DNA of 64,000 nucleotides, taken from an uncultured Pseudomonadota bacterium (GTDB lineage Bacteria > Pseudomonadota > Alphaproteobacteria > Rhizobiales > Xanthobacteraceae). Both the position numbers and the translations under genes were made by a program. Shown piece by piece: positions 6,708-40,027 of the stretch. The stretch spans positions 67,414 through 131,413 of the forward strand of contig CAWDUV010000005.1 of assembly GCA_963805535.1 (NCBI GenBank), in the 5' to 3' direction. Each line of letters opens with the position of its first letter. The stretch's first letter is position 1. The notes beneath the pieces were generated by a model. That model was given only the letters and a program-made list of their open reading frames with translations. It was not told the DNA's origin and searched no databases.

Positions 6708-8009
6708 TCACGCCGCCAACAAGCGCTCCACCGCGGCGGCGATGCGGAAAAGACGGCGGTCGCAGCCGTTGCGGGCGGCCAGCATCAGGCCGGTGGCAAG
6801 GCCGCCGTGGCGCGGCAGCGGCAGCGAGATGGCGCAGCAGTCGAAGAAATTCCAGACCGTGGTGTTGCGCAGCAAAAGCGCGTTGCGGCGGGAGAAGTCG
6901 TCCGGGGCGGCGACCTCCGCCATGAGCGGCGCCACGATCGGCGTGGTCGGCATGACGACCGCGTCGAGATCGGCCAGGCGGGCATCCATGGCGCCGATGA
7001 GTTCGGTGCGCGCGCGGGCCATGTCGATATAGTCGGCGGCCGCGATCTGGCTCGCGCGCTCGAGCCGGGCGCGGATATTCGGATCGATGTCGCCGGCGCG
7101 ACGGCCGAGCCGGTCGCGATGCACGGCATAGGCTTCCGGCAGCAGCACGCCGCCCTTGCCGAGCAGCTCGGTCATCCGCTCGATGAGCGGCAGCTTCTCG
7201 GCCGACACGCGGACGCCGGATTTCTCCAGGCGGTCGAGCGCCGAGGGAAAGCTCTTGCCCACCGTGTCGTCGAGCCGGTCGAGCGCGAAGCCTTGCACGA
7301 CGCCGATGCGCAAATTGGCCAGCGGCGCGGGATCGAGCGCAAGCGGCGCTTCACCCGCCATGACGGCGTCGGCATCGGCGCAATCTTGCACGCTGCGCGC
7401 CATCGGCCCGACCGAATCGAGCGCCCAGGACAAAGGAAAGGCGCCGTCGGTCGGCACGCGCTGGCGGCTCGGCTTGAAGCCGACGATGCCGCAGAGCGCG
7501 GCCGGCACGCGGGTGGAGCCGCCGGTGTCGGAGCCGATCGAAATCTCGCACATGCCGTCGGCGCAGGCGACCGCGCCGCCGGAGGTGGAGCCGCCGGGAA
7601 TGCGCGCGCGGTCGAACGGGTTGCCCGGCGTGCCGAAATGCGGATTGGCGCCGACGCCGGAAAAGGCGAATTCGGTCATGTTGGTCTTGGCGACGATGAC
7701 ACAGCCTGCGCGGCGCAGGCGGCGCACGATGGTTGCGTCCCGAACGGCCGGTCTGCCTTCCTCGGCGATCACTTTCGAGCCTGCGCGCGTGACTTCGCCG
7801 GCAACGTCGAACAGGTCTTTGATGGAAACGATGGCGCCGTCGAGGGCGCCTAGCGAGATGCCGGCCTTGGCGCGGGCGTCGGATGCCTCGGCCGCCGCTT
7901 TGGCCGCTTCGCGGTAGACGTTGAGGCAGGCGCGTGCGCCCTCGCCTTTCGAATCGTCGATGCGGGCGAGCGCGGCGTCGAGACGTTCGCGGACGGATGC
8001 ACGGCTCAT
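6708..8009 (-). CDS. Amidase-signature (AS) family amidase
   Basis: 433 aa with SIKDL (catalytic Lys), GGSTSGG and [12 protein letters not shown] (Ser-cisSer) motifs. Its ATG overlaps the ureG stop (ATGA). Confidence 0.8.
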
Positions 8010-8644
8010 TTGCCCAACCCACCTTTGTCTTCAATAAATTTGGCGATTGCCTCGACGCCCTGCCCCTGGCGCAGATTGGTCATGACGAAAGGCCGTGCCC
8101 CCCGCATTTTCTTGGCGTCGCGCTCCATCACTTCGAGCGAGGCGCCGACGTAAGGCGCGAGATCGATCTTGTTGATCACCAAGAGATCGGAGCGCGTGAT
8201 GCCGGGCCCGCCCTTGGACGGGATCTTGTCGCCGGCGGCCACGTCGATGACATAGAGGGTGAGATCGGCAAGCTCCGGCGAAAAGGTAGCGGCGAGGTTA
8301 TCGCCGCCCGATTCGATCAGCACCAGGTCGAGCGCGGGAAACTTGGCGCGCATCTCGGCGATCGCCGCGAGATTGATCGAGGCGTCCTCGCGGATGGCGG
8401 TGTGCGGGCAGCCGCCGGTTTCGACGCCGGCGATGCGCTCGGCGGCCAGCGCGCCCGAGCGCACGAGATAGTCGGCGTCCCATTTGGTGTAGATGTCGTT
8501 GGTGATGGCGGCGATCTCGTAACGGTCGCGCAGCGTCTTGCAGAGCGCGTCCATCAGCGCGGTCTTGCCGGAGCCGACCGGGCCGCCGACACCGACGCGC
8601 AAGGGGCCGTGCGGATTGGGGCCGTGGGGATTCTCAATCGTCAT
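8006..8644 (-). CDS. ureG: Urease accessory GTPase UreG
   Basis: 212 aa: [16 protein letters not shown]...ITNDIYT...[13 protein letters not shown]...ESGGDNL...NKIDLAP, the canonical UreG motifs. Confidence 0.95.
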
Positions 8645-8793
8645 ATTCGGTCATGGCCGGGCTTGTCCCGGCCAGCTCGCTAAGAAAGGCACTGTTACAC
8701 GTCCCTCATCGGGGTCGCGCCGAAAGTCGGGTATATCCGACTTCCGCATTCAAGCAACCGCAAGCCCGCCGGCGAGCATCCATTCAGGCGGCG

Positions 8794-33369: not shown

Positions 33370-34345
33370 ATGGGACTGCTGGTCGACGGCGTTTGGCAGC
33401 AAGACGGCGCGCGCACCAAGGACGGCCATTTCATCCGGCCGAGCACACAATTCCGCAACTGGGTGACGGCGGACGGCGCGGCCGGACCCACCGGCGAAGG
33501 CGGCTTCAAGGCGGAAAGCGGGCGCTATCACCTCTACGTCTCGCTCTCCTGCCCCTGGGCGCACCGCACCGTCATCTTGCGCAAGCTCAAAGCCCTGGAG
33601 AACGTCATCTCCATGTCGATCGTCTCGCCCGACATGCTGCAGGACGGCTGGACCTTCAACCGGGACGAGGGCTCGACCGGCGATTCCGTCAACGGCATGA
33701 GCAAGCTGTCCGAGATCTACCTGCTGGCGGCGCCGAAATATTCCGGCCGGGTCAGCGTGCCGGTGCTGTGGGACAAAGACACGCCAAACGATCGTCAGCA
33801 ACGAGTTGGCGGAGATCATCCGCATGCTCAATTCCGCGTTCGATGCCTTCACCAATGTGCACACCGACTATTACCCGCGGGAAATGCGCGCCGAAATCGA
33901 CCGCGTCAACGAGCAGGTCTATGCGAACGTCAACAACGGCGTCTATCGTGCCGGCTTCGCCACGTCGCAAGATGCCTATGAGCAGGCGTTCCGCAACCTG
34001 TTCGACACGCTCGACGAGCTCGAGCAGCGCCTCGCGCAGCAGCGCTATCTGGTCGGCAACAAGATCACCGAGGCCGACTGGCGCTTCTTCGTCACGCTGA
34101 TCCGTTTCGATGCGGTCTATTACGCGCACTTCAAATGCAATTGGCGACACATCTACGAATATCCCAACCTCGGCAACTACGTGCGCGATCTCTATCAGCA
34201 GCCGGGCGTGGCGGAGACGGTGTCGCTTGAGCAGATCAAGCGGCACTATTACGGCAGCCAGCGGCGGGTGAACCCGACCGGCATCGTGCCGGTGGGGCCG
34301 CAATTGGATTTTTCCGCGCCACACGATCGGGCGAGGTTTGGGTAG
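33370..34345 (+). CDS. Glutathionyl-hydroquinone reductase / Xi-class GST (YqjG/ECM4-like), with a 1-nt insertion-type frameshift at the aaa run 33786-33788
   Basis: The N-terminal part ...GGFKAESGRYHLYVSLSCPWAHRTVILRKLKALE...GRVSVPVLWDKDT (CPWA active site) is in frame 33364. The continuation TIVSNELAEIIRMLNSAFDAF...VYRAGFATSQDAYEQA...RYLVGNKITEADWRFFVTLIRFD... is in frame 33806..34345. Confidence 0.8.
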
Positions 34346-35094
34346 CTTCGACGCGGCACCGCTGCTTCTTACCCTCCCCCTCCAGGGGGGGTGAAGCGAG
34401 TGTGCGGCGCGCGCGCCTTCTTTCCGATTAAGTTTTCAGACAGCCCGCATCGCGTTTAGCCAACGCTCCGCCGCCCGTATTGATTTGGTCGGCCCCGGGG
34501 TGGCCGCTATTCCCATTCCACCGCCCGCTCTCGAAAAGAACCGAGGGCGCGCGGGACGCCGCTGGGCCCAAACGGACCCGCAGGCCTCGACACCTCGCGA
34601 CGCCGAGGCGCATCAAACAGCCCCGCTTCACGCTTTCGCGCTCCGCAAGGGCTCCGCAAGTCCGCCAGTCCCAAGGCGTCCCGCGCGCGGTGTTTGTAGG
34701 TTTGCTCCGCATGGCCCCCGGTGGACGTACCTTTCAGGCAACCTTCCTTACGGAAGCCTGCCTATCCACCGCTTTGGCCGACATGGCCAGTGACGCGCGG
34801 CTGGCGCGCCGGGACACATGCGGCTTGGACCGCCGGGCCATGTCAGCGCATCTCCGCTGCCACGTCATTCCCCGGCCACCGCTCCCCGCCCCGTGTCTGA
34901 AGATGCTGTACAGACACCCCTCGGTAACGAGGCGGGATGCCACGCATTATGAGGCCGGTTTTGCGAGCGGGGATAGATTTTTTCGGGCTTTGAATTTGCT
35001 GGTTTTTTCGGGAATGGTGCGATGTTGCGCTTCGCCTCACGCTTACGAGGGAGAGAGCCGCCCTCCCGAAACATGAGGCGAGGCGAATGCGGCG

Positions 35095-35373
35095 TCAGCC
35101 GAGAATATCCTTCTTCTTCTGCAGATATTCGTCGCGGTTGATCTCGCCGCGCGCGTAGCGCTCCTCCAGCACATCGAGGCCGCCGGAGCGGCGCGGCGGC
35201 GCCAGGTGGTGCATGCCGCCGCCGCCGGTCAGCGAGCGCACCAGCCAGACCACCAGCGCCACGATGGCGATGAGGATGACAAACCAGACGATCATGCCGA
35301 TTGGTCCATATCCGTAACCGCCATAACCGCCCATCATGCCCCAGCCGGGGCCGTAGCCGTATCCCATGGTCAT
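35095..35373 (-). CDS. Small membrane protein: Gly/Tyr/Met-rich N-terminus, one TM helix, SHOCT-like C-terminal domain
   Basis: MTMGYGYGPGWGMMGGYGGYGYGP-IGMIVWFVILIAIVALVVWLV-...GGLDVLEERYARGEINRDEYLQKKKDILG. Its ATG overlaps the stop of the upstream gene (ATGA). Confidence 0.7.
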   Translation of the reverse strand: MTMGYGYGPGWGMMGGYGGYGYGPIGMIVWFVILIAIVALVVWLVRSLTGGGGMHHLAPPRRSGGLDVLEERYARGEINRDEYLQKKKDILG

Positions 35374-35879
35374 TGCTCCGGTTGCACAAAGCCGTTATGG
35401 CGATTGAAATCGAGCCGCTGCACCAGCACGTCCTTTTCCTTGGTGACGACCTCCGCCACGATGGTGTCGGCGTCCTTTTCCTTGACGTCACCGACCTTCA
35501 GATTCGGATTGCGGATCATGTGCGCGAGATATTGCTTGACCTGGTCGGCGGTCAGCTTGAGGTCGCCTTGATTGCCGTAGCCGCCGCCATAGCCGTACAT
35601 CATGCCGGGACCCATACCGTAACCGCGCATCATGCCCGGGCCCATGCCGTAGCCGTGCATCATCCAGCCGGGACCGTAACCGCCGCCCATCATGCCGCGG
35701 CCGTAACTGCCCATCATGCCGCCACCGTAGCCGGGCCCCATCATGCCCGGGCCCATCATGCCGTAGCCGGGGCCCATCATCCCGGGGCCGTAGCCGTAAG
35801 GCTGCGCCTGCACGGGGAGAGCGAACGCGGCCGCCGCCACTGCAGCCGCCGCCAGCAAGCCGTAACGAGATTTGCGCAT
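35370..35879 (-). CDS. Secreted Gly-Met-Tyr-Pro repeat protein with a globular C-terminal domain of unknown function
   Basis: Start MRKSRYGLLAAAAVAAAAFALPVQA (signal peptide). About 75 aa of (P)GMMG(P)GYG-type repeats follow (8 Met-Met dipeptides), then ...LKLTADQVKQYLAHMIRNPNLKVGDVKEKDADTIVAEVVTKEKDVLVQRLDFNRHNGFVQPEQ. Confidence 0.7.
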   Translation of the reverse strand: MRKSRYGLLAAAAVAAAAFALPVQAQPYGYGPGMMGPGYGMMGPGMMGPGYGGGMMGSYGRGMMGGGYGPGWMMHGYGMGPGMMRGYGMGPGMMYGYGGGYGNQGDLKLTADQVKQYLAHMIRNPNLKVGDVKEKDADTIVAEVVTKEKDVLVQRLDFNRHNGFVQPEQ

Positions 35880-35941
35880 ATGAATGCTCCTTGGTTTCGC
35901 CCCCAAGGTAACGGTCGAATCTCAAACCCCGATGACGCCAG

Positions 35942-36292
35942 CTAGTTCGGGCACTTGCCGTAGTAGCCGCTATTCTGGTCGTCGCCGGTCTGGTGCCAGC
36001 AAAGCTGCTTGCCGCGGTAGACGTGGTTGCCCTGGCCGCGCCGGCCGTCATACGGCTCACCGTTGGCGCCGTAGCCGTACATCATGCCCGGACCCATGCC
36101 GTAGCCGCCGCCATAGCCGTTCGTCATGCCGGGACCGTGGCCGGAGCCGCCGCCCATGCCGTAACCGCCGCCGTAACCGCCCATCATGCCGTAACCGCCG
36201 CCGCCATAGCCGCCCATCATCTGCGCCTGGGCAGGCAGGCCGACCGTGGCGAGCCCGAGCGCGATTACCGCCGGAACAAGGACTTTGCGCAT
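35942..36292 (-). CDS. Secreted Gly-Tyr-Met repeat protein with a two-Cys C-terminal tail
   Basis: MRKVLVPAVIALGLATVGLPAQA signal, then QMMGGYGGGGYGMMGGYGGGYGMGGG...GMGPGMMYGYG, ending ...HVYRGKQLCWHQTGDDQNSGYYGKCPN. Confidence 0.65.
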   Translation of the reverse strand: MRKVLVPAVIALGLATVGLPAQAQMMGGYGGGGYGMMGGYGGGYGMGGGSGHGPGMTNGYGGGYGMGPGMMYGYGANGEPYDGRRGQGNHVYRGKQLCWHQTGDDQNSGYYGKCPN

Positions 36293-36365
36293 GGCTAGAA
36301 CTCCTTGCTCAGGGCCATATCGCCCACGCAAGATTGCTAGCCGAACGCGGGCGCGGGCGTATTGA

Positions 36366-36518
36366 TCCGAGTCAAAGGCCTCGAACCGCGGGCAATACGA
36401 TCTCAAGGACTGGTGGTCGCGCCGCATCACCGGCGAGCACCGGCTGGTCTACCGCGTTTCAGGCAAGGGCGAGGAGCGGACGCTGCAAATCGCGCAATGC
36501 CGCTATCATTACAAATAG
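36366..36518 (+). pseudogene. Remnant of a YoeB/Txe-family type II toxin gene (C-terminal part only)
   Basis: Frame reads ...YDLKDWWSRRITGEHRLVYRVSGKGEERTLQIAQCRYHYK* (TAG 36516-36518). This matches the YoeB C-terminus (..WSRRIT.EHRLVY......L.I..CRYHY). The N-terminal ~35 aa are absent, an upstream piece (..KGLEP..) sits in another frame, and no antitoxin gene is present. Confidence 0.7.
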
Positions 36519-36522
36519 CCGA

Positions 36523-37131
36523 TCAGCGCCGTTCGCGACCGCCGATCAGCACGATTCTGCCGCCCGCGCGCCTGATCTCGCCGGCGCGCTCGAGCGCGGC
36601 GAGCGTGCGGTAGAGCGCCTCGTGCGTCAGGCCGAGCTCGGCGGCAAGTTCCTTGAGCGTGCCGTTCACACGCACGGTGCGGCCGTCGGGGCCCGTATTG
36701 AGCGCGAGATAATGGCGGACGCGCTCGCGCGCGGAACGGATGTCGCGCTGCGCCAGCCGCGTGCGCAGGCTCATCACCTGGCGCGCCAGCATGGCGCCGA
36801 AGGCCTGCGCGGCCTTGGGATCCTTGGCGAAGGCCGCGAGCACCGCCGCTTTCGGATAGACGCGCACGGCGGCATCGCCGGCGGCGACCGCGTCGCAGTG
36901 ATAGGTCGGCGAAAACAGCGAGGCCTCCGCGATTGTTTCGCCGGGGCCGGCGACATAGAGCACGGTCTCGCGGCCCGAGCGGTCGACGCGCGTCAGCCGC
37001 ACGCGGCCGCTCACCACCTCGACCAGGCCGGCGGTCTTGTCGCCGAGATGGAACAGCGGCTCGCCGGCTTTGAGCTTGCGCTCGACGGCGGAGGCGCGCG
37101 CGGCGGCGGGCAGCCAGTCTTTGACGGGCAT
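36523..37131 (-). CDS. Crp/Fnr-family transcriptional regulator
   Basis: MPVKDW... start at ATG 37131. There is a cNMP-binding-like beta-roll (LFHLGDKTAGLVEVVSGRVRLTRVDRSGRETVLYVAGPGETIAEASLF) and a C-terminal HTH (LKELAAELGLTHEALYRTLAALER). No N-terminal Cys cluster is present, so it is not a classical FNR. Confidence 0.8.
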   Translation of the reverse strand: MPVKDWLPAAARASAVERKLKAGEPLFHLGDKTAGLVEVVSGRVRLTRVDRSGRETVLYVAGPGETIAEASLFSPTYHCDAVAAGDAAVRVYPKAAVLAAFAKDPKAAQAFGAMLARQVMSLRTRLAQRDIRSARERVRHYLALNTGPDGRTVRVNGTLKELAAELGLTHEALYRTLAALERAGEIRRAGGRIVLIGGRERR

Positions 37132-37185: not shown

Positions 37186-38410
37186 ATGCCGAGGCCGGAT
37201 TACTTCGCCATGGCAGACAACGCGCTCAATCCCTACGAACGAGCCATCGTGCGCAACGCCGACTGGTTCATCCGCCGCCAAACGCGCGAGGGCTATATCG
37301 ATGCCGATGGCGACGAGTTCTACGGCATCCGCGGCGACGCGACGCTGGTCGGCCATTCGGTGACGGTGCGCTGCTATGCCGGCGTTCTGACCGCTTCCGA
37401 ACGCTACCTTGATTCCGCCCGCCAATCGCTCTCCTGGCTGGCGGCCCGGCAGGACGAACACGGCGGATGGCGAAACCATTCCGCCTTCACACTCGACGGC
37501 GCGCAATGCGTGTTCGAGGGCTTCAATACTTACGAGAGGGTCACCGGCGACCGCCGCTACCACGACGTGCTGGTGAAAGCCGCCGACCGCATGATCGCGG
37601 GCACGCTGACGCAAGACGGCGGCCTGCAACTCTCCGACATCATCGAGATCGGCGAGTACGCTCATTTCGCGCTGCTCGCCTGGAAGACGACCGGCGAGGC
37701 GCGCTTCAAGCAGGCGGGCGAGCGCATCCTCGCGCATATCGAACGCAATTTCGACGCCACGGAAGGGATGTGGCGACCCTTCGACAGGGCGAAGCTGCGC
37801 AACGACATGCTGGCGCGGATATTGCGTCCGCTGCTGCGCGGCGCGATGACCCACCTGCCGTTACGCGGCCGCCTGGTGGCGCGCGTCTCCGAGCACATGG
37901 CGCCGTTCGCGGTGGGCGACAGCCACCCGCAATACGCCATGAACCTGATGGACGCGGAAGCCTTGCTCGATACGCTTGGACGGCGCGTGCGACTTCCCAA
38001 CCCTCAAGGCGCAGACGCGGGCCGCCATTGCCTGGGCCGAAAGCAATTGCCGCGGACCGTTTGCGGGCAGCCTGGTCGAATCCAAAAAGATGAACGGCAG
38101 GGCGGACGTCTATCCCGTTCCCATCATCAACGACACGCGCACCGCCGCGCTGTGGCCGACGACCTGCCTGCTCATCGCCTATTGCGGCATGAACGACGCG
38201 GCCTACCGGAGCAAGGCGCAAAGCGTCGCCGACTGGATCCTGACCGTGCAGGACGAGCAAGGCGGCTTCAGCAATTTCCAGAATGCCGACGGTTCGAAGC
38301 GGCCGTTGCAGAGCGGCAACGTCAATTTCTACGCGTCGATGGCCTTGTGGCTGTTCAACGAAATCTACCGCGACGGCCGGATCAAGCTCTTTTCGGCGCC
38401 GGCCACATAG
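37186..38410 (+). CDS. Cytoplasmic alpha/alpha-toroid protein with prenyltransferase/terpene-cyclase-like QW motifs; 1-nt insertion-type frameshift at 37976-37979
   Basis: MPRPDYFAMADNALNPYERAIVRNADWFIRRQ...WLAARQDEHGGWRN... is in frame 37186 up to ...NLMDAEALLDT. The continuation LDGACDFPTLKAQTRAAIAWAES...WILTVQDEQGGFSNFQ... is in frame 37976..38410. The repeated Q-D-E-x-G-G-[WF] motif suggests the fold. Confidence 0.55.
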
Positions 38411-39028: not shown

Positions 39029-39067
39029 ATATGGAACAGGCGCATCCGGGACCGAAAGGGTTTTTTC

Positions 39068-40027
39068 GTGAAGAATTTCTCCGACCTCACCGAGCAGGAA
39101 GTGCTGGCGCTGGCCATCACCAACGAGGAAGAGGACAGCCGCATCTACCGCGGCTTTGCCGAGGGCCTGCGCGAGCAGTTCCCCGCCTCGGCCAAGGTGT
39201 TCGACGAGATGGCCGAGGAGGAGGTGCACCACCGCACCATGCTCTACGATCTCTATCGCGAGAAATTCGGCGAATATTTGCCGCTGATCCGGCGCCAGGA
39301 CGTCAAGGGCTTTCTGCACCCCAAGCAGCCTTTATGGCTGACGCGGCCGCTCGGCCTCGAGGAGGTGCGCAAGTTCGCCGAGAACATGGAATTCGAAGCC
39401 GAGCGCTACTATCGCAAGGCGGCGGCGAACGCGCGCGACGCATCGGTGCGCCAGCTGCTGGTGGAACTCGCGGAAGCGGAGGCCGGCCACGAGAATTTGG
39501 CGCACAAGCTCTCCAAGGAAATCCTCACCGCGGGCGCGCGCGAGGTGGAAGCCGAGACCGCGCGGCGCATGTTCTTGCTGCAATACGTGCAGCCGGGCCT
39601 GGTCGGACTGATGGACGGCTCGGTGTCGACGCTGGCGCCGTTGTTTGCGGCGGCCTTCGCCACGCACAATACCTGGGCCACCTTCCTGGTGGGCCTGGCG
39701 GCCTCGGTCGGCGCCGGCATTTCCATGGGTTTTGCCGAGGCGCTGTCGGATGACGGCTCGCTCACCGGGCGCGGCTCACCGATCATTCGCGGGCTCGTCA
39801 CCGGCGGCATGACCGCGCTCGGCGGGCTGGGCCATACGCTGCCCTACCTCATTCCGCATTTCTGGACGGCGACCGTGATATCGATCGTCGTGGTCGCGAT
39901 CGAGCTCGCCGCGATTTCCTATATCCGCTACCGCTACATGGACACGCCGATCGTCTCCGCCACCTTCCAGATCGCGTTCGGCGGCGCCCTGGTGTTCATC
40001 GCCGGGATTTTGATCGGGAGTGCGTAG
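39068..40027 (+). CDS. mbfA: Membrane-bound ferritin-like / VIT1-CCC1 iron exporter (MbfA)
   Basis: GTG 39068 gives (M)KNFSDLTEQEVLALAITNEEEDSRIYRGFAEGL.... The N-terminal erythrin/ferritin-like domain has two E-x-x-H motifs (EEEVHH, EAGHE). The C-terminal VIT1 membrane domain reads ...GLMDGSVSTLAPLFAAAF.... Confidence 0.85.
   Translation: MKNFSDLTEQEVLALAITNEEEDSRIYRGFAEGLREQFPASAKVFDEMAEEEVHHRTMLYDLYREKFGEYLPLIRRQDVKGFLHPKQPLWLTRPLGLEEVRKFAENMEFEAERYYRKAAANARDASVRQLLVELAEAEAGHENLAHKLSKEILTAGAREVEAETARRMFLLQYVQPGLVGLMDGSVSTLAPLFAAAFATHNTWATFLVGLAASVGAGISMGFAEALSDDGSLTGRGSPIIRGLVTGGMTALGGLGHTLPYLIPHFWTATVISIVVVAIELAAISYIRYRYMDTPIVSATFQIAFGGALVFIAGILIGSA

Follow-up and report, generated by a model that had tools for sequence, protein, structure and literature searches.

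A predicted secreted GMMG-repeat protein and a SHOCT-domain membrane protein form a conserved gene pair, often preceded by an FNR/FixK-type promoter box

The subject of this analysis is a small operon on the minus strand of a 64-kb (64,000-nucleotide) stretch of DNA, called the window here, from an uncultured Xanthobacteraceae bacterium (contig CAWDUV010000005.1, assembly GCA_963805535.1). The operon consists of three genes, A, B and C, and its conserved core is the pair formed by B, which encodes a Gly/Met-rich repeat protein with a C-terminal domain, and C, which encodes a membrane protein ending in a SHOCT domain. The window was compared with 80 loci, mainly from metagenome-assembled genomes (MAGs) of soil Xanthobacteraceae together with Xanthobacter, Terripilifer, Bradyrhizobium and Rhodoplanes; because many of these loci come from related soil Xanthobacteraceae genomes, the locus counts given below are not independent. 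The closest related locus, L001, stems from an uncultured proteobacterium MAG. The family falls into two branches, group 1 with 58 loci and the window, and group 2 with about 20 loci plus L082, L083, L087 and L088. Gene C lies directly 3' of B in 57 of the 58 group-1 loci, and the two genes overlap by 4 nucleotides (nt) or are 2–3 nt apart in 38 of the 40 loci that could be evaluated. Gene A, on the other hand, occurs in only about 13 group-1 loci, and a Crp/Fnr-family gene in about 26. An earlier note, made from the sequence of the window alone, had taken the three genes for a three-part architecture; the conserved unit is instead the B–C pair, and A is optional, one among several interchangeable accessory genes.

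Gene A (35942–36292, 116 residues, ATG at 36292), gene B (35370–35879, 169 residues, ATG at 35879) and gene C (35095–35373, 92 residues) are all on the minus strand, and both the open reading frame listing and the sequence agree with the three co-directional genes described in the earlier note. An AAGGAG ribosome-binding site stands 8 nt 5' of the ATG in A (36306–36301) and in B (35892–35887), and the stop codon of B and the start codon of C share a 4-nt ATGA overlap, as had been recognised when translational coupling was proposed. The third-position GC content of A, B and C is 0.80–0.84, like that of other genes of the window. The plus-strand DNA repeat that had been noticed was recovered under A and B by Tandem Repeats Finder with periods of 15–60 nt, and the presence of the same layout in hundreds of homologues excludes chance as its source.

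The N-termini of A and B, read by eye, consist of MRK, a hydrophobic core and then AQA or VQA, and look like the Sec signal peptides that had been assigned to two of the genes; both proteins are probably exported by Sec. In B, the signal peptide is read as residues 1–25 and is followed by a low-complexity region of GMMG, GYG and GPG repeats (residues 26–102; 35574–35804, minus strand) and by a C-terminal domain (residues 103–169; 35373–35573, minus strand). Gly, Met, Tyr and Pro account for 92% of residues 26–102, in keeping with the dominance of these residues claimed before, Met alone for 23% and charged residues for about 3%, and the count of Met-Met dipeptides is exactly the eight that had been given. 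A search with B returned more than 2,000 relatives, none of them named, and an exhaustive profile-free search with the last 71 residues as the query gathered 388 clusters at 50% identity into one family. In the genome collection searched its members come mainly from soil Alphaproteobacteria, and nearly all of them combine a signal peptide with a Gly/Met-rich region and between one and three C-terminal domains. The common unit throughout the family is GMMG, and Trp or Gln can stand for Tyr. Among relatives with C-terminal domains about 80% or more identical, the repeat region varies in length (146–199 residues for the whole protein), which indicates that its composition counts above its exact sequence. 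The plasmid collection held a single relative, annotated as hypothetical, on a plasmid of Phenylobacterium zucineum (L089).

The C-terminal domain of B (about 65 residues), which the earlier note had called normal-looking, is confidently predicted by AlphaFold2 (pLDDT 89) to contain one helix and four strands. Conservation within it falls on Asn, Gly, Thr, Leu, Val, Lys, Glu, Asp and Arg, with no typical metal ligand among them. The domain has no Pfam or NCBIfam match, a PDB sequence search with the family profile gave nothing below E=1, and comparison of the model with PDB folds by Foldseek gave a best match of E=0.3 with TM-scores of at most 0.45. A PepSY-like fold, considered on account of the strand pattern, was dropped because no PDB fold matched below E=0.3; no PepSY protein stood in the Foldseek top 50 and no PepSY match was found in Pfam. 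Searching the literature with PGMMG and similar repeat strings turned up irrelevant papers only. The earlier statement that no such system was known to be characterised holds insofar as A and B are unnamed in the databases and match no Pfam or NCBIfam family.

Gene C encodes an N-terminal tail (residues 1–24), one transmembrane helix (approximately residues 25–46), a linker with HH and PPRR, and a SHOCT domain at residues 66–91 (35101–35178, minus strand). The SHOCT-like end perceived in the earlier note matches Pfam PF09851 with E=1.2e-8 and 34.8 bits (cut-off 27), and C is a bona fide member of the SHOCT membrane proteins; PF09851 is precomputed on nearly all C homologues among the 120 matches listed. 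The database names for C are only "SHOCT domain-containing protein" or "putative membrane protein", and one homologue, P0386, is 100% identical to it. The tail consists of 46% Gly, 21% Tyr and 17% Met, and a hydrophobic 19-mer at residues 27–45 has a mean Kyte-Doolittle value of 3.2. Across 50 homologues the tail carries a motif, YGPxWGMMG, in which Tyr 7, Gly 8, Pro 9 and Met 13 are invariant and Trp 11, Gly 12 and Met 14 nearly so, and which goes beyond mere low complexity and amounts to one copy of the repeat unit of B. Among SHOCT proteins, the C subfamily is set apart by this outward tail and by its obligatory pairing with B.

In the SHOCT paralogues P0490, P0501 and L038 4602–4979 a cleavable signal peptide is followed by a GYG/GMMG region, a transmembrane helix and a SHOCT domain; they are in effect a B repeat fused straight to C without the folded domain of B. 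Since the positive charges of C are found only after the transmembrane helix, and the paralogues with signal peptides carry the same kind of tail, the tail of C is most likely periplasmic and the SHOCT domain cytoplasmic. This topology agrees with the prediction that SHOCT domains are intracellular and membrane-proximal (PMC11237479), although the function of the domain itself is not known (PMC3581485). A literature search combining "SHOCT" with "copper" gave as its sole result a SHOCT membrane protein of haloarchaea that is induced by silver, too distant a case to draw on.

Gene A has a signal peptide at residues 1–23 as judged from its sequence, a GYG/GMMG low-complexity region at residues 24–76 (89% Gly, Met, Tyr and Pro; 17% Met) and the two-Cys tail that had been pointed out before, which follows the conserved pattern YRGxxLCWHxT...GYYxxC and recurs with the same Cys loop in the homologues at about 13 loci. 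Pfam and NCBIfam scans of A gave nothing, and the sources label it, like B, "hypothetical protein". At other loci the place between the regulator gene and B is taken by A or by different genes: a further SHOCT protein, a CopL/DUF2946-like Cys protein, a protein resembling cytochrome c', or a secreted Met/His-rich protein from one of two families. The unannotated secreted proteins in this position are encoded at L019 4380–5150, L039 4818–5531, L021 4107–4724, L009 4766–5413 (minus strand) and L009 4162–4704; one Met/His-rich family ends in HHQPHHLMMAKGE and the second in MMKNHGGMMGGPMMMHGMMH, and the cytochrome c'-like protein is a CxxCH protein; no match of these three families attains a Pfam cut-off.

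Group 2 is without C. Its B-like genes, often duplicated, are divergent from genes for an OmpR-like regulator and an EnvZ/CpxA-like kinase. In 19 of the 23 linked sensor kinases (L059 3270–4748, minus strand, and 18 others) a periplasmic segment, GGMGGMMHGMMGPGFG, is conserved (GGMMHGMMGPG), and it is a candidate Met4-His sensing site. At L081, a protein of the LTXXQ (CpxP/Spy/ZraP) family with a GMMGMMGMMGM N-terminal region is encoded at 7098–7643, just 5' of a B-like gene, and a HiPIP-like four-Cys protein with a Tat signal and a GSGMMGGQMGPGMMG insert at 8362–8670, just 3' of it; GMMG segments thus occur in several periplasmic proteins of these bacteria that are otherwise unrelated.

Three elements of the system were absent from the earlier note, namely the YGPxWGMMG motif of C, an FNR/FixK-type promoter box and an adjacent Crp/Fnr-family regulator. 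The box, TTGAC-TCGG-ATCAA, is read on the minus strand at 36362–36375, with its centre 76.5 nt upstream of the ATG of A. With the box pattern defined as TTGAY-N4-RTCAA, TTGAYNNNNRTCAA matches once in the window, in the operon promoter, against 0.05 matches expected. A box lies in the operon promoter of 43 of the 58 group-1 loci and also at L079, L080, L085, L086 and the Phenylobacterium zucineum plasmid locus, where a Crp/Fnr gene is likewise nearby and which offers no further functional clue. Across 878 kb of loci, 48 of 69 box matches sit just upstream of the first operon gene. In an anchored alignment of 46 promoters the flanks of the box are not conserved, and CTAGCA, CTAGAA or TATAAA occurs at a fixed spacing of about 21 nt; in the window the corresponding element would be a −10-like hexamer, TAGCAA (36334–36339, minus strand), 22 nt after the box. 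The centre of the box, which resembles the class II type TTGAT-N4-ATCAA, would then lie at about −41.5 of a transcription start predicted near 36327, the class II geometry of FNR/FixK-type activation. Scans of 34800–36700 for a consensus sigma-70 promoter and for intrinsic terminators found nothing. The group-2 loci have no box at the operon-promoter position; a second positionally conserved FNR-type box lies there about 5.7 kb downstream of B, after RND pump genes and before another gene (L059 11789–11802; likewise L062–L066, L071–L076, L082, L083 and L088).

The regulator gene (36523–37131, minus strand; 202 residues from MPVKDW...) is directly upstream of the operon, and its orthologue stands 1–3.5 kb upstream of B in the roughly 26 related loci mentioned above. 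Its product belongs to the Crp/Fnr family by its matches to cNMP_binding (PF00027, E=4e-17) and HTH_Crp_2 (PF13545, E=2e-7), its nearest solved relatives are Crp-family proteins, and no NCBIfam equivalog matched at the cut-off. The recognition helix, THEALYR, retains what we take to be the Glu and Arg of the E--SR motif of FNR. The Crp gene beside the multicopper oxidase at L085 was considered as an orthologue of the regulator and rejected, being a different, FNR-like protein.

We tentatively favour, at a probability short of even, the interpretation that the operon depends on an activator, is induced under oxygen limitation and buffers Cu(I), perhaps also Ag(I), in the periplasm by means of a protein that has a partner in the membrane. 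A Crp/Fnr-family activator, which could be the neighbouring regulator, a global FixK/FNR-type protein or both, would bind TTGAC-N4-ATCAA at about −41.5 and drive A, B and C. Sec would export A and B, and B would consist of a disordered GMMG/GYG chain on a small folded α/β domain, the latter, without conserved metal ligands, probably mediating protein contacts. C would be made in step with B through translational coupling and inserted with its YGPxWGMMG tail outside and the SHOCT domain at the cytoplasmic face, and would either dock B at the inner membrane or supply a membrane-bound copy of the site. The Met pairs in the Gly-rich, uncharged chain would bind Cu(I) without needing O2, which would cover the condition under which multicopper oxidases fail.

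On the regulatory side, the box in the operon promoter and the Crp/Fnr-family regulator next to it are consistent with this interpretation, and so are copper genes that neighbour B at several loci in independent arrangements. L006 encodes a CsoR (PF02583, E=1e-29) and a CPC-type ATPase (CopA) with YHS and HMBD domains, L078 a CPC-type ATPase of the same YHS/HMBD kind, and L085 a multicopper oxidase divergent from B–C that itself has GMMMGMMGGM inserts; another multicopper oxidase is found in L029, and DUF411 neighbours in L065, L077 and L087. CopL-like or DUF2946-like proteins occur in about eight loci as weak matches below the curated cut-offs, and the accessory genes of the same islands include Met/His-rich secreted proteins. 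A regular-expression match to an HMA (CopZ-like) protein in L015 was discarded as a spurious open reading frame. Metal buffering, as put forward in the earlier note, thus gains circumstantial support from these neighbours and from the Met4-His motif of the kinases, but most loci have no recognisable copper gene.

Several observations weigh against copper buffering. The loci without a recognisable copper gene include the window itself, and the repeat of B contains no MxM and no MxxM motif and a single His, whereas such features are usual in the Cu(I)/Ag(I) sites characterised so far. Next to B, L081 and L084 carry genes of sulfur type, for an ArsR-rhodanese, a beta-lactamase-fold protein and a DsrE protein, and in group 2 B is linked to a BigR-like ArsR with a YgaP-type transmembrane protein. 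The best score of the group-2 two-component system is to the EnvZ/CpxA-like and not to the heavy-metal subfamily, and the regulator is a generic Crp/Fnr member whose sequence has no FNR-type Cys cluster. To these points the lack of independence of the locus counts has to be added.

Among characterised metal-binding proteins, SilE is a disordered periplasmic metal sponge (PMC5008109), and SilE and PcoE resemble B, as it is pictured in the copper interpretation, in being small, Sec-exported and largely disordered, with repeated side chains that bind soft metals; their genes, too, have copper or silver homeostasis genes as neighbours. SilE and PcoE are charged, however, and hold His and Met in HxxM/MxxH-type motifs, whereas B combines Met-Met pairs, set in a Gly/Tyr/Pro chain without charge, with a folded C-terminal domain and has its own membrane partner. 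B showed no sequence relationship to them, and its repeat lacks the His/Met motifs (HxxM, MxxH, MxxM) by which they are recognised. The Met-rich domain of CueO recruits Cu+ (PMC12041951) and PcoB has an N-terminal disordered region rich in His and Met (PMC12509749); the inserts of CueO and PcoA and the N-terminal region of PcoB recruit Cu(I) (PMC12041951, PMC12509749) and are, like the repeat of B, flexible, Gly/Met-rich segments, and the inserts of the L085 multicopper oxidase closely resemble that repeat. These segments belong to an enzyme or to a channel, however, whereas B is a free-standing repeat protein without a catalytic domain and, in contrast to the CueO/PcoA type, would function without O2. 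CopI is known to act in microaerobic conditions (PMC13308877).

An unlikely alternative, though one with an appreciable chance, is that B is an envelope-stress accessory or modulator like CpxP, Spy and ZraP, or a "methionine-bristle" chaperone for unfolded envelope proteins, its domain reading the GMMG or YGPxWGMMG unit in the periplasmic loop of the kinase (group 2) or in the tail of C (group 1) and so tuning signalling. In Escherichia coli, cpxP and zraP are divergent from cpxRA and zraSR, and the B-like genes of some 20 loci hold the same position relative to the OmpR-type regulator and EnvZ/CpxA-like kinase as the genes of these small, stress-induced periplasmic proteins. Moreover, a GMMGPG[FY]G-like unit is common to the kinase, to C and to B, the LTXXQ protein of L081 with its GMMG region is encoded directly 5' of a B-like gene, and the domain of B has conserved charged surface residues and no metal ligands. 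CpxP, Spy and ZraP form an all-helical hairpin dimer, on the other hand, and the predicted fold of B combines a helix with four β-strands. Neither A nor B matches LTXXQ (PF07813) at E<=1, while the same library finds the L081 neighbour with E=7e-26, so the membership in this family that the earlier note had suggested searching for did not materialise. No two-component system is near the operon in the window, and the copper-gene neighbours would be unexplained unless copper itself were the sensed stress. Quite unlikely in our estimation, but built on the same shared unit, is the broader idea that GMMGPG[YF]G/YGPxWGMMG is a linear motif read by the domain of B, so that multivalent B would cross-link itself, the tail of C and the kinase loops into a periplasmic domain–motif signalling or condensate system with the SHOCT domain as its cytoplasmic output and the Met pairs as a copper or redox switch.

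We give only a small chance to the possibility that A and B act as sacrificial sinks, their Met residues taking up periplasmic oxidants such as HOCl and peroxynitrite. The Met content of both repeats would suit this role, and there is a precedent in MrpX of Azospira suillum, as B is predicted to be a small, secreted, Met-rich protein, which acts as a scavenger and is regenerated by a methionine sulfoxide reductase (Msr) of the periplasm (PMC4436054). MrpX, however, is highly charged (20% Met and 44% charged residues, as against about 3% charged residues in the repeat of B), is co-transcribed with yedY1/yedZ1 and is controlled by SigF/NrsF, none of which was seen at the window operon. The eight contexts with precomputed Pfam annotation contain no Msr and no YedY/MsrP-type molybdoenzyme, and inspection by eye of the recurrent clusters, which were not scanned with Msr profiles, revealed no MsrP/MsrA/MsrB-like neighbour. 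FNR-type boxes also serve the nitric oxide-responsive regulators NnrR and Dnr, which would fit oxidant defence, but induction at low oxygen suits such a defence poorly. An equally small chance goes to the idea that A, B and C build a self-assembling low-complexity matrix, with C as its anchor, which would form a gel or a coat either at the inner membrane or surrounding a periplasmic deposit. This is suggested by the likeness of A and B to the Gly/Tyr-rich envelope proteins of sulfur globules, by their G/Y/M/P-rich, uncharged and length-polymorphic composition, by C and its paralogues with signal peptides, which tether the same type of sequence to the membrane, and by the sulfur-type genes of L081 and L084. 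The likeness to SgpA, SgpB and SgpC is compositional only, as no sulfur-globule or other structural family in NCBIfam or Pfam matched A or B at E<=1. There is no dsr or sox gene among the annotated neighbours in the window, which is annotated in part, so that this point counts for little; the conserved fold of B and the invariant motif of C point to specific recognition and not to bulk assembly. Of the interpretation offered in the earlier note, the anatomy has therefore stood and the metal idea has circumstantial backing, whereas the trio as a unit, the oxidant sink and membership in the Spy/CpxP/ZraP and sulfur-globule families are not supported.

The neighbours of the operon in the window are genes for a glutathione S-transferase, a GNAT-like protein, a NUDIX protein and a rubrerythrin-VIT protein. 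The last of these, a rubrerythrin-VIT1 fusion of the erythrin-vacuolar iron transporter type (39031–40027, plus strand), is together with the NUDIX gene syntenic with the island in about 27–29 related loci. The YqjG-type glutathione S-transferase gene (33370–34342, plus strand) has a frameshift near 33777, from frame 1 to frame 2, which is either a long-read indel error or a sign of a pseudogene; the orthologues in L002, L013 and L032 are unbroken and encode 324 residues. An alpha/alpha-toroid (squalene-cyclase/prenyltransferase-like) gene (37210–38404, plus strand) has another frameshift near 37976–38109, and its orthologue in L019 is unbroken (399 residues). Two frameshifts within 5 kb suggest assembly indels.

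Gene B founds a sizeable family, of 388 clusters and thousands of sequences, that no database names. To this family can now be assigned a partner and a promoter element, both conserved, as well as ligands that can be tested. If periplasmic Cu(I) buffering is indeed its function, an O2-independent buffer would be added to the set formed by CueO, Cus, CopI and SilE/PcoE, and it would be one that operates in abundant soil bacteria, the relatives of Pseudolabrys, Xanthobacter and Bradyrhizobium. The SHOCT domain, which has been without a known function since its description in 2013, would then gain its first defined functional partner.

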